Source: an uncultured archaeon
GTDB lineage: Archaea; Aenigmatarchaeota; Aenigmatarchaeia; QMZP01
Assembly (NCBI GenBank): GCA_964555875.1
Contig: CAZKUD010000003.1
Coordinates: 14,659-78,658 of the forward strand
DNA length: 64,000 nt
Direction of reading: 5' to 3'
Shown piece by piece: positions 15,450 to 64,000 of this stretch (within the stretch, counting starts at the first letter, position 1; every line of letters begins with the position of its first letter). The notes under the pieces are model-generated. The model did no database searches, was not told the origin of the DNA, and saw only the letters and a program-made list of their open reading frames with translations. A program made the position numbers and the translations under genes.

Positions 15450-16582
15450 ACTCCGGTGAATTCTGCTCAAGGCTGAAGGGCCTTGGATACAGCTTCTTTG
15501 CTGGCGTTCCCTGCTCCTTCTTCAAGGACACGATAAACTACGTGATAAGCGACAAGGACACGTTCTATGTTTCGGCTGTGAATGAGGGTGCAGCAGTAGG
15601 GATAGCGTCCGGCGCCCAGCTTGCCGGCAAGAAGGCCGCCGTGGTAATGCAGAACGCTGGCGTCGGCAACACCATAAACCCGCTGACATCTCTCAACATG
15701 ATATACAACATCCCAATCCTTATCTTCATAAGCGGAAGGGGTTATGGCGTGAAGGACGAGCCCCAGCACGCAATAATGGGCAGGGCCACACATAAGCTCA
15801 TGGAAGAGATAGGCGTTGAGGTGAAGGACCTGCCTGAAGATGATGATGAGGCCTTCAGGGAGATGGAGAGCTTTGATAAGAAGATGTCGGACGGAAAGCC
15901 CAGGGCTTTTGTCATCAGGAAGGGCACGATAGGGGCATGCGAGACTGAAAGGGGGGACATGAAGGAGAGGGTAATAGAGCCCCATTATTCCTCTGAAGAG
16001 AGGCCAAAGGGACTCATCAGCAGGTATGACGCCATAGAAACCGTAAGCAGGCTGATGGATGACAGAACCGCTGTTGTGGCCACCACAGGAAAGATATCAA
16101 GGGAGCTTTTCACCATAAATGACCGGCCGCTCAACTTCTACATGCAGGGATCCATGGGCCATGCCGCCGCGATAGGCCTGGGTGTAGCCATATGCAAGCC
16201 GGACAGGAAGGTCGTGGTGATGGACGGGGACGGGGCGGCCCTCATGCACATGGGCACGCTTTCGACCATAGGCCATTATGCTCCCGAGAACCTCACGCAT
16301 ATAGTGTTCGACAACGAGTGCCATGAAACAACCGGGGGGCAGGGCACCACATCAGTGACGGCCAGGCTTGACGATGTCGCCAGGTCATGCAGGTACAGCA
16401 GGGTGTACAGGGTGTACACGATAGAGGGCTTGGAGAATGCGGTCAGGGAGTCCTTGGAGGGGGATGGACCAGGGTTTATACTGGTGAAGGTCAGCAGGGA
16501 GAAGAAGGAAGGCATACCAAGGATAACCACTAAATACACAACGGAGGAAACCGCAAGGATATTCAGGGAGGCGCTTTCGTAA
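15446..16582 (+). CDS. ppd: Phosphonopyruvate decarboxylase (ThDP-dependent)
   Basis: The N-terminus GYSFFAGVPCSFFKD is typical of Ppd/AepY. ThDP motif: MDGDGAALMHMGTLSTIG...FDNECHETTGGQ. ATGA overlap with pepM. Confidence 0.8.
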   Translation: MNSGEFCSRLKGLGYSFFAGVPCSFFKDTINYVISDKDTFYVSAVNEGAAVGIASGAQLAGKKAAVVMQNAGVGNTINPLTSLNMIYNIPILIFISGRGYGVKDEPQHAIMGRATHKLMEEIGVEVKDLPEDDDEAFREMESFDKKMSDGKPRAFVIRKGTIGACETERGDMKERVIEPHYSSEERPKGLISRYDAIETVSRLMDDRTAVVATTGKISRELFTINDRPLNFYMQGSMGHAAAIGLGVAICKPDRKVVVMDGDGAALMHMGTLSTIGHYAPENLTHIVFDNECHETTGGQGTTSVTARLDDVARSCRYSRVYRVYTIEGLENAVRESLEGDGPGFILVKVSREKKEGIPRITTKYTTEETARIFREALS

Positions 16583-17721
16583 TGAGCCAGGAGATTGTTT
16601 TTGGGCCAGGCAAACTCCGTGAGCTTGGCAGCATAATAGAAAGGCTGGGGCCCAAATCCATCTTTCTCGTTACAGGCAAAAGGTCTTATGATTCCTGCGG
16701 AGCCAGGGAGATCGTAGAAGAGGCATGCAAAGGTAGGGAAGTCCACAGGTTCAGCGATTTCGAGGTCAACCCAAAGATTGAGGACGTCAAGAGGGGCATA
16801 AAGATTTGCCTGGAGAATGGCTGTGACCTTGTTGTGGCCGTCGGTGGGGGAAGCGTGATGGATGTCGGGAAGTCAGTTGCCATACTGTCCCGGCAAGAAG
16901 ACAAGGAACATCCGGAGAGATACATAACCAAGGAAGAGGCCCCTTTGCCTAAGACCCTCCCCATGGTTGCGGCTCCGACCACGTTCGGGACAGGGAGCGA
17001 ATCCACGCATTTTGCGGTGGTATACATAGGCAAGGACAAGTACTCACTTGCCGATGGGATGATGGTCCCCAAGGTCGCCATAATAGACCCCAGGATGTCT
17101 AAAACCCTGACAAGGAAGATAAAGGGAAGCACCGCATTCGATGCCATATGCCAGGCCCTGGAGGCCTACTGGTCAAACAGGTCCACGGAAGAGTCAAAAG
17201 AATACAGCACCAAGGCGCTGAAGCTCATGGTCCCATCAATTGAAAGGTTTGTCAATGAAGGGTATGACGAGAGGGCAGCATCTGACATGGCGCTTGGAAG
17301 CAACCTGGCGGGAAGGGCCATAAACATAGCCAAAACAACCGCTGTGCATTCGACTTCATATCCCATGACATCATATTTCGGTGTCCCCCATGGCCAGGCA
17401 TGCGCCATAACCCTGCCCGAATTTTTCAGGTTCAACTGCGGAGTGGGTGAGGGCAACATACAAGACAGCAGAGGCATTGGTTATGTCAAGGACATTATGA
17501 AGAGCATACCTGGACTGTTTGGGATGGAAAGCGAGGAGGAATGCTACAACAAGATTAAGACCCTTATGGTCAATTGCGGGCTTGCAACCAGATTGGGGGA
17601 CCTGAACATAAATGACATAAAGCTCATACTGGACAACGGCTTCAATCCGGAGAGGGTCAAGAACAACCCCGTGAAGGTCACAAGGTCTGATTTGAGGAGG
17701 CTGCTGGAGGGGATAGGATGA
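16582..17721 (+). CDS. Group III iron-containing alcohol dehydrogenase; candidate phosphonoacetaldehyde reductase (PhpC/FomC/Pdh-like)
   Basis: GGGSVMDVGK motif and His-rich metal site region (AVHSTSYPM...PHGQAC). TAATG overlap with ppd; the substrate assignment comes from operon context. Confidence 0.7.
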   Translation: MSQEIVFGPGKLRELGSIIERLGPKSIFLVTGKRSYDSCGAREIVEEACKGREVHRFSDFEVNPKIEDVKRGIKICLENGCDLVVAVGGGSVMDVGKSVAILSRQEDKEHPERYITKEEAPLPKTLPMVAAPTTFGTGSESTHFAVVYIGKDKYSLADGMMVPKVAIIDPRMSKTLTRKIKGSTAFDAICQALEAYWSNRSTEESKEYSTKALKLMVPSIERFVNEGYDERAASDMALGSNLAGRAINIAKTTAVHSTSYPMTSYFGVPHGQACAITLPEFFRFNCGVGEGNIQDSRGIGYVKDIMKSIPGLFGMESEEECYNKIKTLMVNCGLATRLGDLNINDIKLILDNGFNPERVKNNPVKVTRSDLRRLLEGIG

Positions 17722-18428
17722 AGGCTGTCATACTGGCCTCCGGCGCGGCCACCAGGCTCAGGCCGCTTACGGACAATGTGCCCAAGTGCCTCATAGAAGT
17801 CAATGGGGACACAATACTGGGAAGAATGCTGAGGGGGCTGGAAAGGAACGGGGTAAAGGATATCCTGATAACCACCGGCCACATGGGAGATGCTGTCAGA
17901 GAGTACGTGAAAAGCAATTTTCCGGGCCTTAACGTAGAGTATGTTCATAATCCCATGTTTGGGGACACAAATTACATATATTCCATGTGGCTTGCCAAAG
18001 ACAAGGTGACCGATGATGACATCCTGCTCCTTCACGGGGACCTGGTTTTTGACGAGACGCTCCTCGAAAGGGCGGTGAATGTAACCGGCAGCATGGTACT
18101 GGTCAACAAAAGCGTGCCTCCACCAGAGAAGGACTTCAAGGGCCTTGTTGTGGATGGGCACGTGAAGAACGTGGGAGTGAACGTGTTTGGGGATGGGGCA
18201 TTCTTCCTGGCCCCGATGTACAGGCTTTCCAAGGAAGCTTTCAAGGTATGGATGTCTGAGATAAACCGCTTTGTGGGCAATGGGAAGGTCAAATGCTATG
18301 CAGAGGATGCTTTCAACAACGTATCACATATAATAAAGGTTGCCCCCCTGTACTACACAGAATTCTGTATGGAAATAGATACCCCGGAAGACCTGGAAAA
18401 GGCAAAAAAGGCGCCCGAGATGGCCTGA
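17718..18428 (+). CDS. Nucleotidyltransferase (LicC/sugar-phosphate NTP-transferase fold); candidate phosphonate cytidylyltransferase
   Basis: AVILASGAATRLRPLTDNVPKCLIEVNG is the G-x-G-x-R-L signature. ATGA overlap with the upstream ADH gene. Confidence 0.7.
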   Translation: MKAVILASGAATRLRPLTDNVPKCLIEVNGDTILGRMLRGLERNGVKDILITTGHMGDAVREYVKSNFPGLNVEYVHNPMFGDTNYIYSMWLAKDKVTDDDILLLHGDLVFDETLLERAVNVTGSMVLVNKSVPPPEKDFKGLVVDGHVKNVGVNVFGDGAFFLAPMYRLSKEAFKVWMSEINRFVGNGKVKCYAEDAFNNVSHIIKVAPLYYTEFCMEIDTPEDLEKAKKAPEMA

Positions 18429-35262: not shown

Positions 35263-36392
35263 AGATAGCGATACTCGGCGCCAGGAGGTTCCCTCCCAGG
35301 ATGAGCGGGATAGACAAGCAGGTATACAACCTGTCGCTCAGGCTGGAGAGGATGGGCCATGAGGTGTTCGTCTTTGTCTCCGAGAGTGCCGGGAAGGCCC
35401 CCAGGAAGGGCATACACATAATCAGGATACCAAGCATAAACATTGAGCTGTCTGACATGAGCATGTCGTACCTCTCCTATAACGTGCTCTCGGTGCCCAA
35501 GGTAGTGTCTGCCATAAGGAAGCACAAGATAGACGTGCTTCATGCGAACAATCCCCCGTCAGGGGCCATAGCATACCTGGTGAAGAAGGCCACGGGCATA
35601 CCCGTAGTCTACACGCTTAGGGGGACCATACCTGACAACAGGAAGGCCAGGGGCAGGATGGTGTCTAAGCCGCTCTCCTTGATGGAGAAGATGGCGCTCA
35701 GGGTGGCTGACAAGTCCACCGCGCTCACCCAGCACATCAAGAGAACGACCGAAAGGTACCACAGGAGGAAGCTGGACATGGTCGTGATACCCAACGGCAT
35801 AGACACCGGCAGGAAAGGCGTGCCGGGAAGGATAAGGAAGGAGTTCGGGCTGAAGAGGAGTCATAAGGTGCTGGTCTTTGTGGGCAGGCTGGTGGGAGTG
35901 AAGGGACTGGCCTACCTGATGGACGCGATGAAGGGCGTGTGCAGGAAGCACCCGGACGCCAGGCTCCTTGTGGTAGGCGGAGGGCCCATAAAGCATTCCC
36001 TGGAGGAGCAGGCAAGGGTGAATGGCATAGGGAAGGCCGTGATATTCACTGGGCCCAGGGCAGACGTCCCTGACATACTCGCGGACTCCGACCTGATGGT
36101 CCTCCCGTCATTGCACGAAGGTTTCCCGAACGTCGTGCTGGAGGCCATGGTCGAGGGCAAGCCGGTGGTTGCCACAAGGGTCACCAGCAACCCTGAGATA
36201 GTCAGGCCGGCCTTCGGCACGCTTGCAGAGCCAAGGAACCCTGAGAGCCTGGAAAGGGCGATATGCTCCATGCTGTCCGGAGGAAAGCTGGAAAGCATGG
36301 GGAAGGCAGCCCTAAAGGAATCCAGGAAATATTCATGGGACAACGTGTCAAGGATGTTCGAGAGGGTCTTCAAAGAGGTTGCTCGCCGCTGA
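35259..36392 (+). CDS. Glycosyltransferase family 4 (GT-B)
   Basis: MKIAILGARRFPP... and C-terminal SLHEGFPNVVLEAMVEGKPVVATRV. ATGA overlap with asnB. Confidence 0.8.
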   Translation: MKIAILGARRFPPRMSGIDKQVYNLSLRLERMGHEVFVFVSESAGKAPRKGIHIIRIPSINIELSDMSMSYLSYNVLSVPKVVSAIRKHKIDVLHANNPPSGAIAYLVKKATGIPVVYTLRGTIPDNRKARGRMVSKPLSLMEKMALRVADKSTALTQHIKRTTERYHRRKLDMVVIPNGIDTGRKGVPGRIRKEFGLKRSHKVLVFVGRLVGVKGLAYLMDAMKGVCRKHPDARLLVVGGGPIKHSLEEQARVNGIGKAVIFTGPRADVPDILADSDLMVLPSLHEGFPNVVLEAMVEGKPVVATRVTSNPEIVRPAFGTLAEPRNPESLERAICSMLSGGKLESMGKAALKESRKYSWDNVSRMFERVFKEVARR

Positions 36393-38667
36393 TGCTCATG
36401 AAGCTGCTTATGTCATCAGTTCCCTCTTCAGGCTGTTTTGCAGGCTCGTCCCCATAGAGAACCTGGTATATCTTGACCGCGCCGTTGTCGAATGTTTTTT
36501 CCACCGGAAGGCCGAAGCCGTCCATGAACATGAGGCTGGAGAACACGTTCCTGTAGGCCTCTTCCGGCACGTAGAATACGCCGAAGTTGGTTATGGCAAC
36601 GCAGCCCCCTATGTTGGGGGTCTCCGTCCCCAAGGTTATTATGCCTGATGTGGTGCAGACGTCATTGACATATGCCCTGGAAACGTACTGGTCGCCTTCT
36701 GATATGAGGAACATGGGAGTCCCGGAAAGGCCTGCGCCCTCGAAAGGCAGCCATATACTGTACTGGCCTGCCTTGAACTCATATATGGTCTTGTTGCCCT
36801 GGGGGTAAGTGCCTGTCTGCTGGAACTGGAGCATGCCTGTTATCTCGCTTCCCTTGCTGCCTATCTTGGATATGGCCCCGTACTTCCCTGGAAGAGTGTA
36901 ATCCATAAGTATGTAGTCCACATGGTACCTCTCCTTCAGCCAGCTCTCGCAGGTGTAGTTCTCAACCTCGAATTCGCATGTGTCATCGCTCCAGTTCCTT
37001 GCGTCATTCATGAACCATACTGCTATGTCATACCTCGGGCCGGCGCCCCCGCCGTCGCTGACAGAGGGCCTCTGACCCCTTGTCTGGAACCAGTATCCGA
37101 AATCCCACCAGGACAGTATGTTGGAATCTTCGGGGGTCTCGGTGGCCAGGAATTCCATGGACTCCTTCCAGTAGTCGTTGAACGAGGGGCCTATGGAATT
37201 TGAGTAGACATATGCGCTGCCGAAGTTCGTTATCAGGAGGAGGGACATATAAACAGCGCCCAAGACCAGTACGGCGTTCCTCATATGTCTTATCCTTGAC
37301 ACTGCCTCTTTCCTGGTCACTTGCCGGGCCTTGTCAATCAGCCAGGATATTGCAATGGCACCCGAAACAGCAGCCGCAGGTCCCAGGACGAACAGGAGAC
37401 GTATCATGCCGAAGACCAGGGCTATGCTGGAGATTACCCAGAGAATCACGAACACCATGGACCAGTCGTATTTTTTGGTGTAGAATATGTATGCCATTAT
37501 TGCGACGCTGGCAAACATGAATATGTAAAGGGAAACGTACTGGGACATGAACCCCAGCTGCGGGATTATTGACGATATGTACCCCGTGCCAGTCGCCGAG
37601 TATATGTCGGCCCAGGAGCCCCCTATCTGCTCAGCTACAGTGCTGGCTGCAGTCGCCTTTTCCATTGATACCATGATTATTATGCCCTGCAGCGTGCTGT
37701 AAGCGACGTCAGAGAACATGGTGGATATGAAGAACCCTACGGCCCCGATGAGGGCCATGGCAGGCACGAAATATGGCAGATGCTCCTTCTTTACCAGGCC
37801 GTACCTCTCCACCCCGTGCCTCAGGCCCATGATTATCGCGGTGGCGATGAGCAGAAGATAGGACATCTCGGTCAGGCTGGTGTATTTGTAGGGGAACACG
37901 AAGTATCCGACTATTATGGTTATGAACATCGGCATAAAGGTCGCAGTCAGTTTCTTTGAATGCTGGTTCAGCAGCAGGAGTATGAGGGCGAACCCTGCGA
38001 TGAGCATGAAGAATATCCTGGCGCCTCCCCAGGTCTGTGCCACGAAAAGCAGGGCCAGTCCGGATACTATGCCCGAGATTGCGCTCGACTTCCAGGACTT
38101 GTCCTTGTAGCCCTTCAGGAAGAAGTAAATGCCCAGCATGAAGAAGGGGGCAGACATGCTCTCCTTCTCGAAGAAGCCCGCAGAGGTCCTGGTTATGAAG
38201 GCAGGGACAGTGGCCATGAAGAACGCTGCCAGCAGGCCCGCCTTCCTGTCGTACAAAAGCTTGCCCACGAAGTAGGTGATTGCTACAGCAAGCGCTCCCA
38301 TCATGGCAGGGAACAATATGGCGAACTGCAGATATGTCATGCTAAGGCCGCCCATGACTACGTAGAGTATGGCAGGGAGGTAGTACAGGGTCGGGGGGTC
38401 GTAAAGGCCGGGCTTTGCCCCGAACGGGTGGTGCCTCATCAGGTCTATTTCTGGCATCTGCCAGCTGTTCTCCAGCACGTACTCGCTGATCCTGAAGAGA
38501 TAGAAGGGGTCTATTGCCTGGAGCTCCCCGAACCTGGCCGGGAGGGCCCTGAGCCAGAACGCGGACACGACTATCAGGGCAAGCAACACCATGTAGATGA
38601 CGGTCTTTTTGTCTGCCTTTGGCATGCTGAAACTGGGAGCGATTTTGGATAATGCTTTTATGTCCAT
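36370..38667 (-). CDS. aglB: Archaeal oligosaccharyltransferase AglB (STT3 family)
   Basis: Multi-TM N-terminal domain plus a WWDYG-type motif, seen as ILSWWDFGYWFQ. ATG at 38667 (MDIKALSK) is preferred; 38625 is an alternative. The ORF-track start at 38730 would overlap aglH. Confidence 0.85.
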   Translation of the reverse strand: MDIKALSKIAPSFSMPKADKKTVIYMVLLALIVVSAFWLRALPARFGELQAIDPFYLFRISEYVLENSWQMPEIDLMRHHPFGAKPGLYDPPTLYYLPAILYVVMGGLSMTYLQFAILFPAMMGALAVAITYFVGKLLYDRKAGLLAAFFMATVPAFITRTSAGFFEKESMSAPFFMLGIYFFLKGYKDKSWKSSAISGIVSGLALLFVAQTWGGARIFFMLIAGFALILLLLNQHSKKLTATFMPMFITIIVGYFVFPYKYTSLTEMSYLLLIATAIIMGLRHGVERYGLVKKEHLPYFVPAMALIGAVGFFISTMFSDVAYSTLQGIIIMVSMEKATAASTVAEQIGGSWADIYSATGTGYISSIIPQLGFMSQYVSLYIFMFASVAIMAYIFYTKKYDWSMVFVILWVISSIALVFGMIRLLFVLGPAAAVSGAIAISWLIDKARQVTRKEAVSRIRHMRNAVLVLGAVYMSLLLITNFGSAYVYSNSIGPSFNDYWKESMEFLATETPEDSNILSWWDFGYWFQTRGQRPSVSDGGGAGPRYDIAVWFMNDARNWSDDTCEFEVENYTCESWLKERYHVDYILMDYTLPGKYGAISKIGSKGSEITGMLQFQQTGTYPQGNKTIYEFKAGQYSIWLPFEGAGLSGTPMFLISEGDQYVSRAYVNDVCTTSGIITLGTETPNIGGCVAITNFGVFYVPEEAYRNVFSSLMFMDGFGLPVEKTFDNGAVKIYQVLYGDEPAKQPEEGTDDISSFMSISGEQPL

Positions 38668-38717
38668 AAGTATGTTGAATATATTGTCAAGGTTTTTAAA
38701 TATTCGTCTGAGGCCAT

Positions 38718-39743
38718 ATGGAATCCGCAATAATAGTAACCGTCATATCCTTCCTTGCCACGCTGCTGATAGCCCCGAAGCTGATGGCTTTCTTGAGGGG
38801 TTGCGGGATAACAGGGATAGACCAGCAGAAGAAGGGCAGGCCCCTGCTGCCGAGCTCCGGCGGGCTTGCGGTCGCGCTGGGTCTGCTGGGAGGCATAATG
38901 GCCTACATAGCCCTCAGCACCTTCATACTAAAAAACGTCATAGACCTGAGCCTGATGCTGGCCGCGTCAAGCACCATACTAATAGTGGTGCTCGTGGGGG
39001 CGCTGGATGACATAAACATCAAGAGCACCAAGAGGCGCGATTCATCCGGGACGGAGGAGTTCAGGGTGGGCCTTCCCCAGTGGCTCAAGCCCCTGCTGAC
39101 GCTTCCGGCTGCCATACCGCTGATGGCAGTCTCTGCAGGGGAGAGCCTGATAACGCCCCCCCTCATAGGCACCCTGGAGCTCGGGCTCGCCTATCCCCTG
39201 ATTGTGGTTCCCGTTGCCGTCCTATGCGTCTCCAACGCCACCAACATGCTGGCGGGCATGAACGGGCTGGAGGCCGGCATGGGGTTCCTGGCGTCGCTGT
39301 CCGTTGGCATATATGCCCTCCTTCTGGGAAGGGTCGAGGGAGCCATAATAGCGCTTGCCCTTTCGGCCGCCCTGCTGGCCTTCCTGAGATACAACTGGTA
39401 CCCCGCAAAAATGCTCCCAGGTGATTCGCTGACTTATCTGATAGGCGCAACATTCGTTGCCGCTATAATAATAGCCAACGTGGAGATGTTCGCCCTCATA
39501 GTATTCGTCCCCTGGGTGGCCGAGGCGTTCCTGAAGCTCAGGGGCAGGTTCGCCGTCGCCAGCCTGGGAGACCTCCAGCCCGACGGCACGCTCAAGTCAA
39601 AGTACAGGAATATATACTCCCTCACCCACCTGATAATGAGACCGGGGAAGTTCGGGGAGAAGCAGATAACCCTGGTTCTGATGGGAATCGAGCTTGTGTT
39701 CATCTTGCTGGCGTTCGCTGTCTACTGGTACAATATAATATAG
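38718..39743 (+). CDS. Polyprenyl(dolichyl)-phosphate HexNAc-1-phosphate transferase (MraY/WecA/AglH family)
   Basis: Multi-TM protein with NATNMLAGMNGLEAG, the archaeal variant of the NxxDGxDGL motif. It is divergent from aglB. Confidence 0.75.
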   Translation: MESAIIVTVISFLATLLIAPKLMAFLRGCGITGIDQQKKGRPLLPSSGGLAVALGLLGGIMAYIALSTFILKNVIDLSLMLAASSTILIVVLVGALDDINIKSTKRRDSSGTEEFRVGLPQWLKPLLTLPAAIPLMAVSAGESLITPPLIGTLELGLAYPLIVVPVAVLCVSNATNMLAGMNGLEAGMGFLASLSVGIYALLLGRVEGAIIALALSAALLAFLRYNWYPAKMLPGDSLTYLIGATFVAAIIIANVEMFALIVFVPWVAEAFLKLRGRFAVASLGDLQPDGTLKSKYRNIYSLTHLIMRPGKFGEKQITLVLMGIELVFILLAFAVYWYNII

Positions 39744-39748: not shown

Positions 39749-40072
39749 TTATCCGTATTCTCTCCAGCTGAACCTGCATTTGGTGCAGCGCAGGAAAAGC
39801 GTCGGGGCCTCGTCCCCTGACCTGGTCTGCCTTAGCCACCATATGGCTTCCTTGTGGCCGCACTTGGGGCAGACCGTCTTTGTCTTGGGGAGGACCTCCT
39901 CGTTCTTCTCTATGACGATTACCTCGTCCGAGGGCTTCTTCTTGACGTCCTCCTCTATCTCGAGGGGCTTGTAGTGCTTGACCTTATGGCCGCACTTCCT
40001 GCACACGAGAACCGTCTTCTTCTTCTCTTCCTTCGCCACGAGGACGGTCCCGCATTTCTTGCAAAAGTCCAT
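39749..40072 (-). CDS. tfs: Transcription factor S (TFS / RNA polymerase subunit M-like)
   Basis: Two zinc ribbons (CKKCG...CRKCG; CPKCG...CTKC) and the acidic loop QTRSGDEAPTLFLRCTKCRFSWRE. Confidence 0.85.
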   Translation of the reverse strand: MDFCKKCGTVLVAKEEKKKTVLVCRKCGHKVKHYKPLEIEEDVKKKPSDEVIVIEKNEEVLPKTKTVCPKCGHKEAIWWLRQTRSGDEAPTLFLRCTKCRFSWREYG

Positions 40073-40088
40073 TGTAATCTACCATTTC

Positions 40089-40613
40089 TTATCTTGCGAA
40101 CTTAAAACCTTTTCGGCCCCTCTTTTTCCGCCCGTATTCGTAAACGGCATACGCCGCTATTGCCCCACCCGCGACCCAAAGGATGTTGGGCAACAATATT
40201 TCCATCACCCCTATCTTGACCCACCCGAGCCAGGGTATTATGGCTATCTTCTTGCCGTGTATCTGCTCGCTGCTTATCCTTTTCTCGAAGGGCAGCTGGT
40301 TGGCGTTCGCGTCTCCCTTTGTCTGGAACGTGCCGTCAGGGTTTACCTCTATTATCCTGTGCACTATCGCCCTGCCGCTCCCCTCAGGGAAGAACACTAT
40401 CACGTCACCCTCCCCCAGCTGCTCGGGGAGCGTGCCCTGCAGTATCAGCAGGTCTCCCTTGTAGAACGTGGGGACCATCGAGTTGGATTCCACTGCCACC
40501 ACCGGCATGTCAGTGGCCAGGGCTATTCCCAGACCCTGGTTTATCAGGAAAGCCAGCGCTATCCCTCCCAGTATGTACAGTATCGTGGACACGTTTTCGG
40601 GTATCTTTTTCAT
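40089..40613 (-). CDS. Signal peptidase I (archaeal/ER S26B type)
   Basis: N-terminal TM segment, catalytic Ser region VESNSMVPTFYKGDLLIL and His region IVHRI. Confidence 0.75.
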   Translation of the reverse strand: MKKIPENVSTILYILGGIALAFLINQGLGIALATDMPVVAVESNSMVPTFYKGDLLILQGTLPEQLGEGDVIVFFPEGSGRAIVHRIIEVNPDGTFQTKGDANANQLPFEKRISSEQIHGKKIAIIPWLGWVKIGVMEILLPNILWVAGGAIAAYAVYEYGRKKRGRKGFKFAR

Positions 40614-41773
40614 AATCTAAACCGGCCGCGCTGCCGGAAGGCATCCTTCTCGGGGCCCCTGCTTCCCAGCCTGAACTGCCTGGACTTCTCGAACTTCTTT
40701 GAAACCTCGGCCTCGAACTTCTGCAGGACTCCCCTGACTGCCTTGGTGACGTCCCAGGCATGGTCGCCGGCAAAGAAATCGCCTTTCTGGGTTATGAGCC
40801 TCCCCTTGACGGAGTATTTTATCCTCTTTCCGTCCTCCTCGTACTTGTCCACATGAAGGACCATGTACTCTATGGGCACGCTCTTGCCCAGCTTCCTGAC
40901 CTCGTTCCTGAGCTGCTCGTCCACAACGGTCTTTATGAAGGCGTCTTCGTCCTGCATCCCGGAAACCGTCACGCGCACGCCGCTGACCCCCCTTGAGAGC
41001 AGCTTGAGCACCTGGACAGGTGTCACTATGCCCTGGAACTTGCCCTTCTCTATTATGGCAGTGTCCGCCCCCCTGTCCATCATGGACTTGACAAGCCTGT
41101 CTATGGGCGTGTCCGGGCCGGCCCTGACAAGGCCTCCCTGCATGATGCTCCTGGAAGAGGCGAGGACCTTTCCAGGCCTTCCTTTGTCGCCCCCGAGCTC
41201 GCCGACCTGCACCCTGGACTTCTTGTCCATCGTGGCCTTCAGAAGGTCCAGGGTGTCTATGATGCCCTCTGCCCTGTCGTCCTTGTCCAGTATCACCAGC
41301 CTGTTCGCCCCGGTCTGCCTCATTATGGAACGGGCCACGTCCAGGCCTTCGTCAGTGCCTATGCAGTAGGGGAACACCATCACCTCAGAGGCTGGCTTCC
41401 CTTTCATGTCCTGCTTCGGGACGAGGGACATGAGGCCCAGCTTGGTGACCATGTGGTATTTGCCGCCCTTGTACATGGGCACAGACTTGTAGCTGTTTAT
41501 CAGCACCGAGTTTATCGTTTCCCTTGCGTCAGCGTCCGGGGAGAACGGGCTTATCGGGTTTATTGCCGCCTTCAGGCTGGATATCTCGGTCTTGTCGGGG
41601 TTCGGTATGCTCCTTTTCACGAGGTCCCTGGACGTTATGGTGCCCAAATACTCATTGCCGTCCGCTATCACCGCTTCGTTCTTCCTCTTCCTGTACATTT
41701 CAGAGGCTACCTTTGAGACAGTGTCGTCCGGCCTGAACACTAGGGCCGGCTCCGCAACGTCAGCCAGATTCAT
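40610..41773 (-). CDS. Protein with tandem CBS domains and a C-terminal HPF/RaiA (S30EA)-like domain
   Basis: CBS-pair patterns repeat over roughly the first 260 aa. The C-terminal roughly 110 aa (VRVTVSG...IEYMVLHVDKYEE...KYSVKGRLITQKGDFFAGDHAWDVTKAVRGVLQKFEAEVSKK) follow the hibernation-factor beta-alpha-beta-beta-beta-alpha pattern by eye. Confidence 0.55.
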   Translation of the reverse strand: MNLADVAEPALVFRPDDTVSKVASEMYRKRKNEAVIADGNEYLGTITSRDLVKRSIPNPDKTEISSLKAAINPISPFSPDADARETINSVLINSYKSVPMYKGGKYHMVTKLGLMSLVPKQDMKGKPASEVMVFPYCIGTDEGLDVARSIMRQTGANRLVILDKDDRAEGIIDTLDLLKATMDKKSRVQVGELGGDKGRPGKVLASSRSIMQGGLVRAGPDTPIDRLVKSMMDRGADTAIIEKGKFQGIVTPVQVLKLLSRGVSGVRVTVSGMQDEDAFIKTVVDEQLRNEVRKLGKSVPIEYMVLHVDKYEEDGKRIKYSVKGRLITQKGDFFAGDHAWDVTKAVRGVLQKFEAEVSKKFEKSRQFRLGSRGPEKDAFRQRGRFRL

Positions 41774-41781: not shown

Positions 41782-41982
41782 TTATACCCCGCTCTGCTTT
41801 ATCTTTTTCATCTCATTGACTATTTCGCCGGCAAGTATGTTCCTTATCCTCTTTGATTCTATGGGCTTGACTTCTGACAGCACCTTCTTGTTCTTGGCGA
41901 AATCAGTCCCAAACTTGCCTCCGTGCTCCTTTATGAGATCCTTTGCCATTGTCTTTACGGCGGTTGGTTTTACCCTTCCCAT
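41782..41982 (-). CDS. rps17e: 30S ribosomal protein eS17
   Basis: MGRVKPTAVKTMAKDLIKEHGGKFGTDFAKNKKVL...KRIRNILAGEIV is typical of archaeal S17e; 66 aa. Confidence 0.85.
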   Translation of the reverse strand: MGRVKPTAVKTMAKDLIKEHGGKFGTDFAKNKKVLSEVKPIESKRIRNILAGEIVNEMKKIKQSGV

Positions 41983-41983
41983 A

Positions 41984-42055
41984 TGGGGTAGGTGGGAATC
42001 GAACCCACAACACCACGATCTTCAGTCGTGTGCTCTCCCATTGAGCTACTACCCC
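41984..42055 (-). tRNA. tRNA-Phe (anticodon GAA), no intron, CCA not encoded
   Basis: Hand-folded cloverleaf: GGGGTAG TA GCTC AATGGGA GAGC A CACGA CTGAAGA TCGTG GTGTT GTGGG TTCGATT CCCAC CTACCCC A. All four stems are Watson-Crick. Confidence 0.9.
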
Positions 42056-42058
42056 GAG

Positions 42059-42217
42059 CGCCTTGGGAAGGAATTCCCGGCAGGCGGCCCAGGCCGCTTG
42101 CCCTTCGAACCTTCGACCCCACGGTTTCCGCCTGTTTCTTGTTTGGATGAAGCCTTTATGGCGCAAGCCAAAGGCTCCCTTAACAGCCGTGTGCTCTAAC
42201 CGCTGAGCTACCAAGGC
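42059..42217 (-). tRNA. tRNA-Asn (anticodon GTT) with two predicted introns: about 55 nt at 37/38 (42126-42180) and about 31 nt in the T-loop at 59/60 (42073-42103)
   Basis: The exons join to GCCTTGG TA GCTC AGCGGTTA GAGC A CACGG CTGTTAA CCGTG GGGTC GAAGG TTCGAAT CCTTC CCAAGGC G, a perfect cloverleaf. Intron boundaries are ambiguous by +/-1 nt. Confidence 0.75.
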
Positions 42218-42240
42218 AGATATCTAATATTCGTTGCTGA

Positions 42241-42251
42241 TTATTTAAATA
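42241..42251 (-). promoter_or_regulatory. TATA-box-like element upstream of the tRNA-Asn/tRNA-Phe/rps17e unit
   Basis: TTATTTAAATA lies 24-34 nt upstream of tRNA-Asn position 1 (42217), the spacing expected for an archaeal promoter. Confidence 0.4.
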
Positions 42252-54120: not shown

Positions 54121-55287
54121 ATGCTGAGGAGCATACTCTCCGAGAGGGGGCAGGAGCTTCCCGGGATAGTGATAGGCAAGCTCCTGAAGATAGCGGTCGA
54201 GGACAGGTCGGTGGTTTCCCTCGGGCCGGGCGAGCCCGACTTCACGACGCCCAAGGAGATACTGGCGGCTGCAAGGAAGGCCCTGGGAGAGGGCCGCACC
54301 CACTACTCCCCGCCCCAGGGAAGGCTGGAACTGAGGCAGGCGATAGCAGAGAAGCTGAAGAAGGAGAACAGGATAACCGCTGACCCGGACGACATCATAG
54401 TGACCACGGGCTCGACAGAAGGCATACTGCTTTCCCTCATGGCCATGGTTGACCCCGGGGAGGGCGTGCTCCTGACAGACCCGGGCTTCCTAGCGTACAA
54501 GCCCACCATAGAGCTGCTGAGCGGGATGCCGCTCTCCGTGCCCCTGAAGGAGGAGCAGGGATGGCAGATAGACGTGGACGAGCTGGAGCGCGCCATCGTC
54601 CCGGAGAAGACAAACGCGATTATAATAAACACCCCCACCAACCCGACGGGCACGGTCTACACGAAGCAGACCCTGGAGGACATCGCGGACTTTGCGACAG
54701 AGCATGACATCATAATAATATCAGACGAGGCGTACGAGAAGCTGACCTACGACGATGCCAGGCACATTTCCATAGGCTCCCTGAACGGGATGGGGGAAAG
54801 GGTGCTGACCATGCAGTCTGTCTCAAAGACGTACGCGATGGCAGGGTTCAGGGTCGGCTGGCTCCACGGGCCCCAGAAGCTCGTCAAGGCGATGACAAAG
54901 CTCCATCTCTTCTCCACGCTTTCCGCGCCCACTGTTTCCCAGATTGCGGTGACGTCAGCGCTAAGGGGGAAGCAGGCAGCGACCGAAGAGATGAGGAAGG
55001 AGTATGACAGGAGGAGGAAGCTTATTGTCAGGAGGCTCAACAAGATGGGCCTGCACTGCGTGGAGCCCAAGGGCGCATTCTATGCCTTCCCGAAGATATC
55101 GCACCTCACCAAGAAGTCCTCGTTCAAGTTCGCTGAGTGGCTGCTGAAGGAGGGCAAGGTCGCCGTCGTGCCGGGAACAGAGTTCGGAAGGATGGGGGAA
55201 GGCTACATAAGGCTGAGCTACGCGACAGCGTACGAGAAGATAGTCACTGCGATGGGAAGGATGGAGAGGGCACTGAAGAAGCTCTAG
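54121..55287 (+). CDS. Class I/II pyridoxal-phosphate aminotransferase (aspartate aminotransferase family)
   Basis: SLGPGEPDFTTP, NPTNPTG and the PLP-Lys region SVSKTYAMAGFRVGW. ATG at 54121 is preferred over the TTG at 54100. Confidence 0.8.
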   Translation: MLRSILSERGQELPGIVIGKLLKIAVEDRSVVSLGPGEPDFTTPKEILAAARKALGEGRTHYSPPQGRLELRQAIAEKLKKENRITADPDDIIVTTGSTEGILLSLMAMVDPGEGVLLTDPGFLAYKPTIELLSGMPLSVPLKEEQGWQIDVDELERAIVPEKTNAIIINTPTNPTGTVYTKQTLEDIADFATEHDIIIISDEAYEKLTYDDARHISIGSLNGMGERVLTMQSVSKTYAMAGFRVGWLHGPQKLVKAMTKLHLFSTLSAPTVSQIAVTSALRGKQAATEEMRKEYDRRRKLIVRRLNKMGLHCVEPKGAFYAFPKISHLTKKSSFKFAEWLLKEGKVAVVPGTEFGRMGEGYIRLSYATAYEKIVTAMGRMERALKKL

Positions 55288-55658
55288 ACATCCACTGCGT
55301 TCAGGACATCATCCATCGAGAGCCACATGTCCTCGTCATAGTTGCCGTCCGCTATGTGGTTCAGGAGTATCATCTTCCACTTGTCCTGGGGCGGCTTCCA
55401 GGCAAGTATGCCGATGGCGCTCGCCTGCCTGCACCATTCCTGGAAGTCCCTTATCTTGTCCTTTGACAGGCGGGGCATTTTGTTCCAGGCCTTGCTTTCT
55501 ATCGCTATCACAAGACCCTTCTTTATCGCGACTATGTCTGCCGGAGTTAGCCAGCCCCCTGAAGACGCAGCGCGTATGCAGGAGAAGCCCCTCTTGGTCA
55601 GGATGTGCAGGAGGTCCCTCTCGTGCCTGGCGCCCTTGGCGTACGTCTTGATGGGCAT
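55284..55658 (-). CDS. hjc: Holliday junction resolvase Hjc
   Basis: KGARHERDLLHILTKRGFSCIRAASSG...DIVAIKKGLVIAIESKA contains the E...D...ExK nuclease motifs; 124 aa. Confidence 0.8.
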   Translation of the reverse strand: MPIKTYAKGARHERDLLHILTKRGFSCIRAASSGGWLTPADIVAIKKGLVIAIESKAWNKMPRLSKDKIRDFQEWCRQASAIGILAWKPPQDKWKMILLNHIADGNYDEDMWLSMDDVLNAVDV

Positions 55659-57184: not shown

Positions 57185-57274
57185 ACTACTAATTGAAGCC
57201 TAATATTAAAAAATGCCTGACACCACGGTTTCCTGTGGAACTTGCCTTTTTTCTTTATTTCAGTTCTTTCAAAG

Positions 57275-57290
57275 TATTACAGTGTAATAT
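57275..57290. repeat. 16-nt palindromic element TATTACAGTGTAATAT, copy 1
   Basis: Exact duplicate of 57383-57398. Arms TATTAC/GTAATA surround a 3-4 nt centre. Confidence 0.8.
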
Positions 57291-57382
57291 TTAGAAATAG
57301 TTTTATAATACCCGATTTCCATAAGAAATAAAGGTGTCTGGGGTCCACATGAAATGAGGTGATCGTGGGCGCAGAGTACCGA

Positions 57383-57398
57383 TATTACAGTGTAATAT
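57383..57398. repeat. 16-nt palindromic element TATTACAGTGTAATAT, copy 2
   Basis: Exact duplicate of 57275-57290, 108 bp downstream. It lies about 57 nt upstream of the cdc6 ATG and about 30 nt upstream of a TATA-like ATTTAAA (57427-57433). Confidence 0.8.
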
Positions 57399-57454
57399 AA
57401 CAGGAGGGAAGAAACCCACAACAAGAATTTAAACCCCGGTTTCATATAGAGATT

Positions 57455-58654
57455 ATGGTCCAACAAACCCTGGGCGACATCTTCAGCGGCTATGTGCAGA
57501 AGGCAGGAGCGGTCTTCTCCAACAGGAACATCCTGTCACATGACCACATGCCTGAGCAGGCCATGCACAGGGACGAGCAGATGCAGCACCTTGCCACCAT
57601 ACTTGCCCCCTCCATACAGGGAGCCCGCCCCTCCAACGTGTTCCTCTACGGCAAGACCGGGACAGGCAAGACCCTGGTCGCCAGGCAGGTGACCAAGGAG
57701 CTGGAGAAGGCGTCTGACAGGGTGGTTGTGCTGTACATGAACTGCAAGATGAAGAGGGTGGCTGACACAGAGTACAGGCTTTTCGCAGAGCTCTCCCGGG
57801 AGCTCGGCAAGACCGTGCCCGCCACCGGCCTGCCGACAGACGAGGTGTACAGGATATTCTACGAGGCAATCGACTCCAGGCCCCAGAACGTCATACTCGT
57901 GCTAGACGAGATAGATGCCCTGGTCAGGAAGGTCGGCGACGAAATACTCTACAACCTCACCAGGGTCAATACAGAGCTGAAGCAGGCCAGGCTCTCGATG
58001 GTAGGCATCTCTAACAACATATCCTTCATAGAGTCCCTTGATTCCAGGGTGAAGTCCTCCCTCTCCGAGGAGGAGATAATATTCCCCCCATACAACGCCA
58101 ACCAGCTGAAGGACATCCTGTCCACCAGGGCAGAGAAGGCCTTCCACTCAGGCGCGCTCGGCGGCGGGGTGATAGAGAAGTGTGCCGCCCTGGCAGCACA
58201 GGAGCACGGCGACGCAAGAAAGGCGCTGGACCTGCTTCGGGTTGCAGGAGAGATGGCGGAGAGGAAGAAGGAGCCGACAGTGACATCGGGCTTCGTCGAT
58301 GCAGCGGAAGACAAGTTAGACCTGGACAGGACCACAGAGGTGGTGCAGGCACAGCCCAAGCAGTCCCTGGCCGTCCTTGCGGGCATCCTCAAGCTGACGG
58401 ACAAGGGAGAGAAGGACATCCAGACAGGGGACATCTTCCTGGAATATGAAAAGATATCAGCCAAGTGCGGCCTCAAGCCCCTCACCCAGAGGAGGGTCTC
58501 CGACCTTATAGCCGAGCTGGACATGCTGGGCATAATAAACGCAAAGGTGATATCAAAGGGCCGCTACGGAAGGACAAGGGAGATAAGGATACTCCTTGCA
58601 AGGCCCGCTGTGGAGAAGATACGGAGGGTGCTGGAAAGGAACTACCTGGTTTGA
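57455..58654 (+). CDS. cdc6: Orc1/Cdc6 replication initiator
   Basis: Walker A YGKTGTGKT, Walker B ILVLDEID, sensor regions and a C-terminal winged helix; 399 aa. Confidence 0.9.
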   Translation: MVQQTLGDIFSGYVQKAGAVFSNRNILSHDHMPEQAMHRDEQMQHLATILAPSIQGARPSNVFLYGKTGTGKTLVARQVTKELEKASDRVVVLYMNCKMKRVADTEYRLFAELSRELGKTVPATGLPTDEVYRIFYEAIDSRPQNVILVLDEIDALVRKVGDEILYNLTRVNTELKQARLSMVGISNNISFIESLDSRVKSSLSEEEIIFPPYNANQLKDILSTRAEKAFHSGALGGGVIEKCAALAAQEHGDARKALDLLRVAGEMAERKKEPTVTSGFVDAAEDKLDLDRTTEVVQAQPKQSLAVLAGILKLTDKGEKDIQTGDIFLEYEKISAKCGLKPLTQRRVSDLIAELDMLGIINAKVISKGRYGRTREIRILLARPAVEKIRRVLERNYLV

Positions 58655-61625: not shown

Positions 61626-64000
61626 TCAGTTCACGACAGCCTCAGCAGGCCCGTTGGCTGAGGCGAAATTGAGCTTGCCCCCGCAGCTGCAGGTTCCCAT
61701 CAGGGGCATCCTCTGGTAATGCTTGCTGCATTTTGAGCACAGGAAGCCCGTCATCTCATCCTTCTTGATACTTTTCATCACCTTGGGCCCATCCTCCGCA
61801 GCATTCGCTGCCCTCCCCTTCCTGAGTATGTCCAGCAGGCCCACTTGCTTGCCCCCTCCCATCAGCTCGGACTTCGTGATGCCCATGGCACCGAATATCC
61901 TCTCCAGGGGAGGCATGAGCTGGTTGTCTATATAATAAGAGGCGTCTATCTGCAGCCCCTTCTCCTTTATGTATGATGGGTCCTCTGCCCTCTTGCTCAG
62001 CATCTCCTTGCCCTTCACTATGACGTACTCTATCCTGTCCCCCACGCCAGGGGCGTCTACAGCGTTCCTGGCTTTCATTTTGGTGACAAGCTCTATGTGC
62101 GGCTGCACCCCCTTGTAGTGCTTGGGCGCCTTGGTCATGGTCTTGGTGATTATCAGCTTGCTTATGTCTATCTTCCCTGCCAGCAGGTCGTCTATCACAC
62201 CCTTGAAATACTTCATGGCCCCCTTCACGTCCTCCTGCTTCAGTATTATCTCTATGACCTCCTTGAGGGTCTCTCCCACCAGCTTGCACCAGTCCCTCCT
62301 AACGGTCTCTATGCCCTTCATCTCCAGGCCCTCGTCCCATCCCTCCTTCGTCCTCTCGAACTTCCAGGCAGCGTACCTCTTCTTGGTGAGGGGCAGGAAC
62401 CTCTTGAATATCTTCTCGAACTCCAGCTCCTGGGTGCCCAGCAGGTTCGCCGTTATCTCCCCCGCTATCTTGTCTGCTATCCTCCCCATCTCATCCATGT
62501 CCTCTATGCCCTTGAGCTTGGCGAAGACGGAATCAGTGTCCCCGTACACTATCTGGTAGCCGTACTTCTTCTCGACGACGTCTTTGGTGTTGTGTATGGT
62601 CTCCCTGCCTATTGAGGTGATGGAATTTGCTATGTCCAGGTCGAACAGCTTTGACCTGGCGTACCCGAAGTATCCGTACATGGCATTGGCCATTATCTTC
62701 AGCGCCCATTGCTTGGCGTGCATCTCCCTGTGCTTGTTCTCGTCCTTCACGTCCTTCATGGCCTTCTTCACGGCCCCCCTCTCGTTCATGAGGGTCTCCA
62801 GGAGGTCCGGCACTATGCCCCTCTTCCTCTCCTTCTTGAGGAACCATGTCCCCGCAGGCGTGATGGTAAGGTCCTCCTTCTTCACGCCCGCCTCCTCTTC
62901 CTGCCCCTGGTTGACCTTGGTCGTCGGGCAGATGTTGAACGACCTTATGATGGAGGGGTACATGGACTTGAAGTCCAGCACAGCCACGGACGAATGCAGG
63001 CCCTTCACCGGCTCCAGCACCGCCCCTCCTCCCAGCTCCTCTTTCCTTCCCAGGCCTCTCTTCGCTGCCGTGGCATCGTCGGGCTTGCATGGGAATACAT
63101 ACCCCTTCTGGTTGAACACCCTCAGCATGTAGTTCTCTATCCTTGTGGTCTCCCCGGAATCCAGGGTGTCCTGCAGCAGCGTGCCCGACACCTTTGAAAG
63201 AGCGGTGTGCTTGTCTATCAGCTTCATCTTCTGCACAAGGTCCAGCGCCAGCTGCGAGTCCTTCCTGCAGTATTCTGCCAGCTTCCTGAACTCCTCGTCG
63301 CTTCCCTTCCAGAACTTCTCTATCTCCGAGTGCTTCACGTCCTCCTTCTGCTCCCCGATGAGGGCATTGGCCACGAAGTTCAGGCTGTACCTCTGGAGGG
63401 AGAAGTCCTTCTTCACTATGGCGAAGGAGTCCAGCGCTATCCTTCCGGTCAGGTTGACCTTTGTGCTTATGCCTATCTTCCTGTGCGACGTCCTCTTCTG
63501 CAGGCACCTCCCCAGGAACGGCTTAACGTCAAGCTTGTACATCCTGTCGAGTATGTAGGGGAAGTCGAAGTTGTTGCAGTTGTAGCCTGTCATGAAGTCA
63601 GGGTCATACCTCTTCACCATCTTCACGAACTCTTCCAGCATCCCGCTCTCAGAATCGAACGACATCACATTGTCCCCCTTCCTCGTGCTCAGAACCACGG
63701 ACTTGTTGCCCTCGAACGGGTGGCTGAACACCAGGGAAACCATTATGATGGGGTCCTTCTTGGGGTCCGGAAGGGCTCCAGAGGAAGACACGCACTCCAG
63801 GTCGAATGCCAGGTACTTCAGGTCAGCATTCCCGCCCTTGTCTATGGGCACAAGCTTCTTCACGGTGAACTTCTTGTCAGCCTGGACGGTTTCCGTGTTC
63901 GCGAACTGGTCCCCCTCGGTCCTGCACCACCCCATGCCCGACAGGCCCATGTCAGCCATGACCCTGTACTTGAAGAGGACGTCCGCCTCGTATACCGTTA
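61626..64000 (-). CDS. polB: Family B DNA polymerase (PolB), 5' end beyond the window
   Basis: Exo I FDLE, motif A DFKSMYPSII, motif B KIMANAMYGYFG and motif C YGDTDS. The frame stays open upstream of the listed Met to the window edge (..YEADVLFKYRVMADMGL..). Confidence 0.9.
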   Translation of the reverse strand, partial: TVYEADVLFKYRVMADMGLSGMGWCRTEGDQFANTETVQADKKFTVKKLVPIDKGGNADLKYLAFDLECVSSSGALPDPKKDPIIMVSLVFSHPFEGNKSVVLSTRKGDNVMSFDSESGMLEEFVKMVKRYDPDFMTGYNCNNFDFPYILDRMYKLDVKPFLGRCLQKRTSHRKIGISTKVNLTGRIALDSFAIVKKDFSLQRYSLNFVANALIGEQKEDVKHSEIEKFWKGSDEEFRKLAEYCRKDSQLALDLVQKMKLIDKHTALSKVSGTLLQDTLDSGETTRIENYMLRVFNQKGYVFPCKPDDATAAKRGLGRKEELGGGAVLEPVKGLHSSVAVLDFKSMYPSIIRSFNICPTTKVNQGQEEEAGVKKEDLTITPAGTWFLKKERKRGIVPDLLETLMNERGAVKKAMKDVKDENKHREMHAKQWALKIMANAMYGYFGYARSKLFDLDIANSITSIGRETIHNTKDVVEKKYGYQIVYGDTDSVFAKLKGIEDMDEMGRIADKIAGEITANLLGTQELEFEKIFKRFLPLTKKRYAAWKFERTKEGWDEGLEMKGIETVRRDWCKLVGETLKEVIEIILKQEDVKGAMKYFKGVIDDLLAGKIDISKLIITKTMTKAPKHYKGVQPHIELVTKMKARNAVDAPGVGDRIEYVIVKGKEMLSKRAEDPSYIKEKGLQIDASYYIDNQLMPPLERIFGAMGITKSELMGGGKQVGLLDILRKGRAANAAEDGPKVMKSIKKDEMTGFLCSKCSKHYQRMPLMGTCSCGGKLNFASANGPAEAVVN

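Follow-up and report, generated by a model that had tools for sequence, protein, structure and literature searches.

A two-intron tRNA-Asn gene, a tRNA-Phe gene and a directly abutting rps17e start codon in an Aenigmatarchaeota genome: a candidate case of tRNA punctuation in an archaeal chromosome

We analyzed a 64,000-nucleotide (nt) stretch of contig CAZKUD010000003.1 (GenBank assembly GCA_964555875.1, positions 14,659 to 78,658) from an uncultured archaeon of the Aenigmatarchaeota. This entire stretch is called the window, and its numbering is used throughout. The minus strand of the window carries a tRNA-Asn gene that appears to be split by two introns, closely followed by a tRNA-Phe gene and, one nucleotide later, by the start codon of rps17e, which codes for ribosomal protein eS17. 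A first-pass annotation made from the letters of the sequence had described this arrangement and proposed that the three genes form a tRNA-tRNA-mRNA co-transcript, whose processing would create a leaderless rps17e mRNA. The features of the locus are given below in the direction of transcription.

42242..42249, minus strand: TATA box TTTAAATA, at -32 to -25 from the tRNA-Asn 5' end; located by composition scan and conserved in the related loci L005, L087 and L091.
42218..42233, minus strand: conserved element of 16 nt, CGAATATTAGATATCT, located after the TATA box and before the tRNA 5' end; identical in the window, L005, L007, L087 and L091.
42181..42217, minus strand: tRNA-Asn exon 1 (37 nt, positions 1-37: acceptor 5' strand, D arm, anticodon stem 5' strand, and C32-A37 including GTT); from ARAGORN and pair comparison.
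42126..42180, minus strand: intron 1 (55 nt) at position 37/38, with a relaxed bulge-helix-bulge (BHB) motif; from ARAGORN, register scoring and folding.
42104..42125, minus strand: tRNA-Asn exon 2 (22 nt, positions 38-59: anticodon stem 3' strand, variable loop, T stem 5' strand, and T loop TTCGAA); from ARAGORN and pair comparison.
42073..42103, minus strand: intron 2 (31 nt) at position 59/60, with a near-canonical hBHBh' motif; from register scoring, folding and a shuffle control.
42059..42072, minus strand: tRNA-Asn exon 3 (14 nt, positions 60-73: U60, T stem 3' strand, acceptor 3' strand, and discriminator G73); from ARAGORN and pair comparison.
42056..42058, minus strand: 3-nt spacer CTC between tRNA-Asn and tRNA-Phe; direct reading.
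41984..42055, minus strand: tRNA-Phe(GAA), 72 nt, without introns and with CCA not encoded; ARAGORN and Rfam RF00005 (73.1 bits).
41983..41983, minus strand: single T between the tRNA-Phe discriminator A41984 and the eS17 start codon; direct reading.
41782..41982, minus strand: rps17e (ATG at 41982-41980), ribosomal protein eS17, 66 amino acids, with no Shine-Dalgarno (SD) motif; PF00833 and homologues.

When joined, the three exons (37 + 22 + 14 nt) yield a 73-nt tRNA-Asn(gtt) that ARAGORN accepts as a perfect cloverleaf. The first-pass annotation had reached the same product by assembling the segments 42217-42181, 42125-42104 and 42072-42059 by hand, and all of its coordinates proved correct, including the 3-nt gap between the two tRNA genes and the presence of T41983 as the sole base between tRNA-Phe and the eS17 ATG. 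Direct reading of the spliced tRNA finds the features of a canonical molecule, namely the GTT anticodon, U33, A37, G18G19, a TTCRA T loop, the G53-C61 and G15-C48 pairs, and discriminator G73. CCA is not encoded in this gene. After intron 2 was removed manually, ARAGORN with its -i option reported the 55-nt intron at 37/38.

The tRNA-Asn gene is not called on intact DNA by ARAGORN or by Rfam at the gathering score, for both of which tRNA-Phe is the sole call, and Rfam in E-value mode also misses it when the whole window is searched. The same mode applied to 1.2 kb gives a sub-threshold tRNA match at 42217-42108 (18.6 bits), wherein a 56-nt insert is skipped. A scan of the window for D-arm and T-arm motifs recovered only the two known tRNA genes, and other isolated matches lie outside a tRNA context and were taken as chance. 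That standard finders do not call the gene could be cited in favor of a pseudogene, in which a tRNA-Asn locus was broken by two insertions and a functional intronless tRNA-Asn is present elsewhere in the genome. However, the exons are perfect and all universal tRNA positions are intact, and both the intron junctions and the related loci described below bear further on this explanation.

Archaeal BHB geometry was scored at both junctions. In the 5' to 3' direction, each strand passes through one outer helix, a central helix of 4 nt, a bulge of 3 nt in which the cut follows the second base (marked by ^ below), and then the other outer helix. Motifs with 3-nt bulges, a 4-base-pair central helix and both outer helices (h and h') were classed as canonical, and those missing one bulge or one outer helix were classed as relaxed. 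For intron 1, helix h is formed by the anticodon stem (4/4 pairs), and the central helix is complete (4/4), pairing with the intron sequence GCGG through C32-G, U33-G, G34-C and U35-G, two of which are G-U pairs. The 3' bulge is AA^A, and the 5' site reads UA^A followed by a local hairpin in place of outer helix h', such that the motif is of the relaxed hBH or bulge-helix-loop type. Position 37/38 is the only working register for this intron. Cuts at 36/37 and 38/39 would give the same spliced product, and both registers were rejected because they destroy h as well as the central helix. A 48-nt homologue of intron 1 in the related locus L007 retains the central helix, with U33-G replaced by U33-A.

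For intron 2, helix h is formed by the T stem (4/4) and three of the four central pairs are made (U54-A, U55-G and C56-G), with a GxG mismatch at G57. The bulges are AA^G and AU^U, and the h' helix (4/5, GGCA/UGCC) is capped and extended by a GCGGC-CUGG-GCCGC hairpin. When the introns are shuffled, the observed scores are equalled in 4% of intron 1 trials and in 0.9% of intron 2 trials. A fold constrained to the cloverleaf (-65.8 kcal/mol) reproduces the AA^A bulge of intron 1 together with both intron hairpins that had been noticed by eye in the first reading (AGCCTTT/AAAGGCT in intron 1 and the hairpin just named in intron 2), and both acceptor stems also persist when the 258-nt precursor is folded without constraint. 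Both introns fall short of a strict canonical BHB, and both satisfy the relaxed definition used in PMC5829648. BHB-type motifs are therefore present at both junctions, in exactly the register that restores the tRNA, which argues against the pseudogene explanation. A C/D box small RNA (sRNA) within intron 1 was considered and rejected, because direct reading finds neither TGATGA (C box) nor CTGA (D box).

Related loci, designated by L numbers, provide a comparative series. The eS17 protein of the window is found unchanged on 12 contigs, of which four are used here (L001-L004): three come from the JGI metagenome samples 3300029267, 3300017989 and 3300018080, and one from the ENA assembly ERZ27256796. 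The tRNA region of these four contigs is identical to that of the window, and two of them compared over 4.2 kb are 99.9-100% identical. An assembly artefact was rejected, because the identical tRNA region recurs on these four other contigs from different samples; the same recurrence also speaks against a pseudogene. The best named eS17 relatives, as well as most of the top matches from a genome search with an eS17 alignment, are metagenome assemblies labelled 'Candidatus Aenigmatarchaeota archaeon'. The organization of the locus in the window and its relatives is listed below, with eS17 identity to the window, the state of tRNA-Asn, the Asn-Phe spacer, the state of tRNA-Phe, and the distance from tRNA-Phe to the eS17 ATG.

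Window and L001-L004: eS17 100%; tRNA-Asn with introns 1 and 2; spacer CTC; tRNA-Phe intronless; 1 nt (T) to ATG.
L087: eS17 89%; tRNA-Asn intronless; spacer CTCAC; tRNA-Phe intronless; 1 nt (T) to ATG.
L007: eS17 85%; tRNA-Asn with only the homologous intron 1 (48 nt); AT-rich spacer of 31 nt; tRNA-Phe with a 30-nt D-arm intron; 1 nt (T) to ATG.
L005: eS17 83%; tRNA-Asn intronless; AT-rich spacer of 31 nt; tRNA-Phe with a 30-nt D-arm intron; 1 nt (T) to ATG.
L091: eS17 82%; tRNA-Asn intronless; spacer of about 36 nt; tRNA-Phe intronless; 1 nt (T) to ATG.
L006: eS17 68%; tRNA-Asn intronless and on the opposite strand; spacer not applicable; tRNA-Phe with two introns; 1 nt (T) to ATG.

Three of these relatives (L005, L087 and L091) carry an uninterrupted tRNA-Asn gene at the syntenic site, preceded by the same TATA box and the same 16-nt element, and their genes match the predicted exon-exon junctions exactly as continuous DNA. 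Across the three distinct tRNA-Asn sequences represented by the window and its relatives, all 21 cloverleaf stem pairs are standard. In six pairs both partners have changed; two of these, 4:69 and 5:68, are U-A in the window and C-G in the relatives and link exon 1 to exon 3. Because intronless copies exist at the syntenic site and the pair changes are compensatory, we conclude that the exons are selected as one tRNA, and therefore that the pseudogene explanation is very unlikely. The acceptor changes specific to the window compensate for one another across the introns, the locus is a syntenic orthologue of the intronless genes of its relatives, and tRNAs with several introns are common in this lineage, as described below. 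Together with the ARAGORN result and the BHB-type motifs, these observations strongly support the two-intron tRNA-Asn gene that had been proposed, and we hold with high confidence that it is functional. A search of metagenome contigs with the conserved 19-mer spanning promoter and exon 1 returned one chance match (L092), which is not a tRNA locus.

L005 and L007 share 96.9% DNA identity over 3.2 kb, yet at the tRNA-Asn locus (2793-2867 in L005) the 48-nt intron at 37/38 is present only in L007. This intron was therefore lost or gained very recently, and with exact boundaries.

Introns also occur in the tRNA-Phe genes that adjoin rps17e in the relatives, which carry from zero to four of them. 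Their sites are 8/9 or 9/10, the D arm, the region of the anticodon loop, the T stem, and 59/60. Introns at this last site in L010 (112 nt), L012 (34 nt) and L015 (124 nt) share the design of intron 2, with central helices of 4/4, 4/4 and 3/4 pairs, respectively. The tRNA-Phe genes of L018, L015, L010, L011, L012 and L006 lie no more than about 450 nt before the start of eS17, have up to four apparent inserts (in L018), and were all missed by standard tRNA finders. When the junctions of the relatives' tRNA-Phe genes are scored, most give clean 4-base-pair central helices in a BHB register, and the T-loop insert of L018 fails. On the basis of these genes, we regard multi-intron tRNAs as routine in this Aenigmatarchaeota lineage.

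At the other end of the tRNA pair, the 3' end of tRNA-Phe abuts the eS17 ATG, with no promoter, terminator or SD motif between them by the criteria of base composition, runs of five T nucleotides and SD motifs. The gene structure, the BHB geometry, the conservation of the exons and the lack of these signals at the junctions are all known from the sequence. The PF00833 domain is present in 25/25 eS17 matches. In 24/24 aligned homologues the protein begins MGR(V/I)K, with M1, G2, R3 and K5 invariant, and the ATG is thus the real start, because the N-terminus is conserved in all of them. The junction A-T-ATGGG is common to six distinct lineages: the window, L005, L007, L087, L091 and L006.

More distant Aenigmatarchaeota also have tRNA-Phe in front of rps17e, with spacers of 13, 15, 16, 25, 29, 56 and 60 nt and a GGTG SD motif in 5/7. 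The spacers of 13-16 nt leave no room for a promoter, and so co-transcription with SD-led translation looks ancestral. L006, which has the 1-nt junction, shares 80% DNA identity with its close relative L011, which has a 16-nt spacer with an SD motif. Because the window clade and L006 are separate and L011 keeps its SD motif, the motif was probably lost at least twice, and the 1-nt junction probably arose twice. In L088, L089 and L090, a small upstream open reading frame (ORF) and a GGTGA SD motif ('cacaggtgatatt ATG') replace the tRNA beside rps17e, and the linkage of tRNA to rps17e has thus been lost in this part of the clade.

At several first-in-operon genes of the window (for example 47291-, 55784+, 57184-, 57455+ and 42905+), a TATA-like box precedes the ATG by about 22-32 nt and an SD motif is absent, as assessed with crude ORF calls. 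GGTG or GGAGG SD motifs occur mostly ahead of genes internal to operons. This pattern suggests that the host widely translates leaderless mRNAs.

Upstream of tRNA-Asn, a TATA-like box had been noted in the first reading, and TTTAAATA lies at a distance that bears this out. The 16-nt element that follows it is, as far as its sequence indicates, the initiation region, which implies a very short leader or none. We scanned the region between the stop codon of the upstream ORF (42267) and the eS17 ATG for 8-mers with at least 7/8 A/T. Such 8-mers are confined to 42253-42238 and 42232-42220, which correspond to the TATA box and to the bases immediately preceding tRNA-Asn, and none occurs within or between the tRNAs (42220-41983). 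In addition, no run of five or more T nucleotides is present on the minus strand from 42300 to 39500, an interval that covers the whole operon together with its promoter.

These observations bear on whether rps17e might instead be expressed separately, with a weak promoter inside tRNA-Phe or tRNA-Asn exon 3 that starts a primary leaderless transcript at or near the ATG, and with the tight packing of genes reflecting genome compaction. DPANN genomes are compact, and leaderless-type promoters are common in the window. Furthermore, the AT-rich Asn-Phe spacers of L005, L007 and L091 (31-36 nt) hold a TATA-like box at the proper distance for tRNA-Phe, indicating that promoters come and go at this locus. 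However, the 30 nt that precede the rps17e ATG belong to tRNA-Phe (its T arm and acceptor strand), are G+C-rich and contribute no AT-rich 8-mer, and a tRNA sequence is too constrained to double as a promoter with a TATA box and B recognition element (BRE). The SD-bearing spacers of 13-16 nt in L016, L010 and L011 likewise have no space for a promoter, and they favor ancestral co-transcription. We therefore consider separate expression unlikely.

Downstream of rps17e, the window ORFs include three further genes on the same strand.

39749..41773, minus strand: downstream same-strand genes, with a gap of 8 nt, a 4-nt overlap and a gap of 16 nt.
41773-40610, minus strand: gene for a CBS-domain protein, 8 nt past rps17e.
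40613-40089, minus strand: gene for a signal-peptidase-like protein, with a 4-nt overlap with the CBS gene.
40072-39749, minus strand: gene for a TFS/RPB9-like zinc-ribbon protein, after a 16-nt gap.

The CBS-protein and peptidase genes are probably in the rps17e transcription unit, whereas the TFS/RPB9-like gene may have its own promoter. The order DUF1512, 198-amino-acid ORF, tRNAs, rps17e, CBS, peptidase-like and TFS-like is conserved, with downstream synteny evident in L001, L002, L005 and L006.

From the sequence and the precedents discussed below, we infer co-transcription, the participation of particular enzymes and leaderless translation, which would proceed in the following manner. 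The single TATA box at 42249-42242 would drive a precursor that starts at tRNA-Asn or a few nucleotides from it and that contains, in order, the two-intron tRNA-Asn, CUC, tRNA-Phe, U and the rps17e AUG, probably followed by the CBS-protein and peptidase genes. A splicing endonuclease would cut at 37/38, where the BHB is relaxed, and at 59/60, where it is near-canonical, and a ligase would join the three exons into the 73-nt tRNA-Asn(GUU). RNase P and RNase Z would free both tRNAs; since neither gene encodes CCA, its addition would follow. RNase Z cleavage falls directly 3' of the discriminator. The cut after the tRNA-Phe discriminator would therefore form the 5' end of the rps17e mRNA, with an expected 5'-p-U-AUG terminus, and this mRNA, having no SD motif, would be translated by the leaderless pathway. 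The co-transcript proposed in the first-pass annotation agrees with everything computed here, and its RNA-level steps are predicted. We assign a probability of roughly 0.6 to an essentially leaderless rps17e mRNA that is made by processing of one tRNA-tRNA-mRNA transcript.

Co-transcription could also have the opposite consequence for eS17 synthesis if RNase Z yields an rps17e mRNA with a 5' monophosphate that is quickly degraded or poorly translated, in which case the arrangement would act as a throttle on expression. A 5' monophosphate favors 5'-3' exonucleolytic decay in archaea. The downstream product of tRNase Z is known to bear a 5' phosphate (PMC4326828), and the sequence evidence for co-transcription (no internal AT-rich 8-mer and no T5 run) serves this possibility equally. 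However, eS17 is a stoichiometric ribosomal protein, and the gene has no alternative start codon or SD motif from which it could otherwise be made. A 1-nt junction without an SD motif that is fixed in several lineages, and that probably arose twice, is also hard to square with an unproductive mRNA. In mitochondria, the mRNAs freed by the same tRNA-processing enzymes (model in PMC10941002) are, as is generally known, the ones that are translated. An unproductive mRNA thus seems improbable to us.

Several points nevertheless weigh against the proposed reading of the locus as a whole. Our TATA scan is a crude composition filter, and archaeal promoters can be weakly AT-rich. The linkage of tRNA to rps17e is not obligatory, in that L088-L090 (eS17 82% identical) differ in upstream context and have an SD motif. 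Both BHB motifs are imperfect: intron 1 is without an h' helix, the central helix of intron 2 holds its GxG mismatch, and the minimum-energy fold of intron 2 favors a central helix shifted by one base. A broad-specificity endonuclease, of the (alpha-beta)2, epsilon2 or loop-bearing alpha4 type, would therefore be needed, and its gene would lie outside the window; a Pfam scan of the 60 window ORFs found no tRNA_int_endo/EndA, RNase Z, RNase P, RtcB or CCA-adding enzyme domains. Finally, the processed rps17e mRNA would bear a 5' monophosphate, which is a preferred entry point for archaeal 5'-3' exonucleases, and our model would require leaderless archaeal initiation on such an end.

Thermoproteales and ARMAN are known to have tRNAs with several introns and relaxed BHB motifs, including an hBH intron at 59/60 in the pre-tRNA-Cys of Ca. 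Micrarchaeum ARMAN-2, and loop-bearing endonucleases in DPANN lineages have been linked to more disrupted tRNA genes (PMC5829648). The tRNA-Asn gene resembles the pre-tRNAs of Thermoproteales and ARMAN-2 in combining a 37/38 intron with a T-loop intron at 59/60, and in having junctions with a 3-nt bulge, 4-base-pair helix and 3-nt bulge or the relaxed form of this arrangement. As in ARMAN-2, the host belongs to DPANN and related genes hold several introns each. The first-pass annotation was correct in naming Thermoproteales and ARMAN-type archaea as known bearers of such tRNAs, but the host here is neither; it is a member of the Aenigmatarchaeota (DPANN), which are absent from the DPANN genomes surveyed in PMC5829648. 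A further difference from those systems is that intron presence here varies even between two genomes with 96.9% DNA identity.

The closest functional analogue of the proposed rps17e junction is the mitochondrial tRNA punctuation model of Ojala, Montoya and Attardi (1981), as summarized in PMC10941002. In both, a tRNA abuts the next start codon, RNase Z would set the mRNA 5' end, and there is neither a leader nor an SD motif. The mitochondrial scheme operates genome-wide, whereas here it would concern one junction in an archaeal chromosome, with an upstream tRNA that needs splicing and with archaeal translation machinery.

Within archaea, Nanoarchaeum equitans produces a dicistronic precursor of tRNA-Val and C/D box sRNA8, in which RNase Z makes the sRNA 5' end just downstream of the tRNA (PMC3491384), and in Haloferax volcanii tRNase Z acts at a t-element to make the 5S rRNA 5' end, leaving a downstream product with a 5' phosphate (PMC4326828). 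These cases share with our model an archaeal RNase Z cut at the 3' end of a tRNA or tRNA-like element that sets the 5' end of the downstream RNA. That RNA is non-coding in both, whereas here it would be a protein-coding mRNA with its start codon 1 nt from the cut.

Transcription of tRNA genes together with a downstream protein-coding gene has precedents as well. The E. coli thrU-tyrU-glyT-thrT-tufB operon joins tRNAs to a downstream gene for a translation component. In Thermococcus kodakarensis, a tRNA-Lys lies inside the 5' untranslated region (UTR) of TK0306 (PMC4247193). In these two systems a 5' UTR is retained after removal of the tRNA, whereas the spacer here is 1 nt long and has no SD motif. 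Consequently, the "unusual coupling" of tRNA processing with ribosomal-protein expression that was claimed at first sight stands as a variant and not as a new principle, given the earlier examples (PMC3491384, PMC4247193, PMC10941002).

Our literature search, which covered open-access papers, found no direct description of an archaeal tRNA/start-codon junction or of Aenigmarchaeota tRNA introns. Specifically, no description was found in this literature of an archaeal chromosomal tRNA 3' end that lies 1 nt from a ribosomal-protein start codon and that is conserved and probably recurrent. The intron part of our findings is a further case of the known multi-intron tRNAs, and the junction, if processed as proposed, represents tRNA punctuation in a new, archaeal form.

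Other features of the window are noted here as separate observations. Approximately positions 1-39743 form a glycosylation cluster with many glycosyltransferases, sugar epimerases and an AglB/STT3 oligosaccharyltransferase (36370-38730). Inside it lies a phosphonate-type module (13728-18428, plus strand) with genes for a phosphoenolpyruvate (PEP) mutase-nucleotidyltransferase fusion, a thiamine pyrophosphate (TPP)-dependent decarboxylase-like enzyme, an iron alcohol dehydrogenase and a further nucleotidyltransferase. This module hints at phosphonate-decorated surface glycans in a DPANN archaeon.

A 270-nt intergenic region (57185-57454) upstream of Orc1/Cdc6 (57455-58654, plus strand) contains two perfect copies of the near-palindromic 16-mer TATTACAGTGTAATAT, at 57275-57290 and 57383-57398, and is a candidate replication origin. 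PolB (61626-63959) and Hjc (55284-55658) are encoded near this candidate. At the 5' end of an aminotransferase gene (54259-54305, plus strand), Rfam gives a sub-threshold match to the ssnA motif (25.9 bits against a gathering score of 37.3, E = 0.013), which is probably due to chance.

For genome annotation, these results mean that standard finders miss the only tRNA-Asn candidate of the region, and DPANN genomes annotated in this way appear to lack essential tRNAs. Concern over undetected disrupted tRNA genes in DPANN and Asgard genomes has been raised previously (PMC5829648). The comparative series is also a clean natural record of tRNA-intron gain and loss, which includes the two 96.9%-identical genomes that differ by one precisely bounded intron, and position 59/60 recurs in it as a hot spot of intron insertion.

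The broadest interpretation, for which we judge the odds to be about even, is that Aenigmatarchaeota use tRNA punctuation in their chromosomes. An old tRNA-Phe/rps17e unit would have lost its SD spacer at least twice independently, and RNase Z would make a leaderless mRNA with a 5' monophosphate, tying eS17 synthesis to tRNA transcription and processing. If this is true, the eS17 of the window lineage would sit behind a tRNA that needs two splicing events. The locus would then be a natural archaeal case in which the 5' end of a leaderless mRNA comes from processing instead of from the start of transcription. It would be relevant to the question of whether leaderless initiation in archaea accepts a 5' monophosphate, and it would represent a convergence with mitochondrial gene expression.

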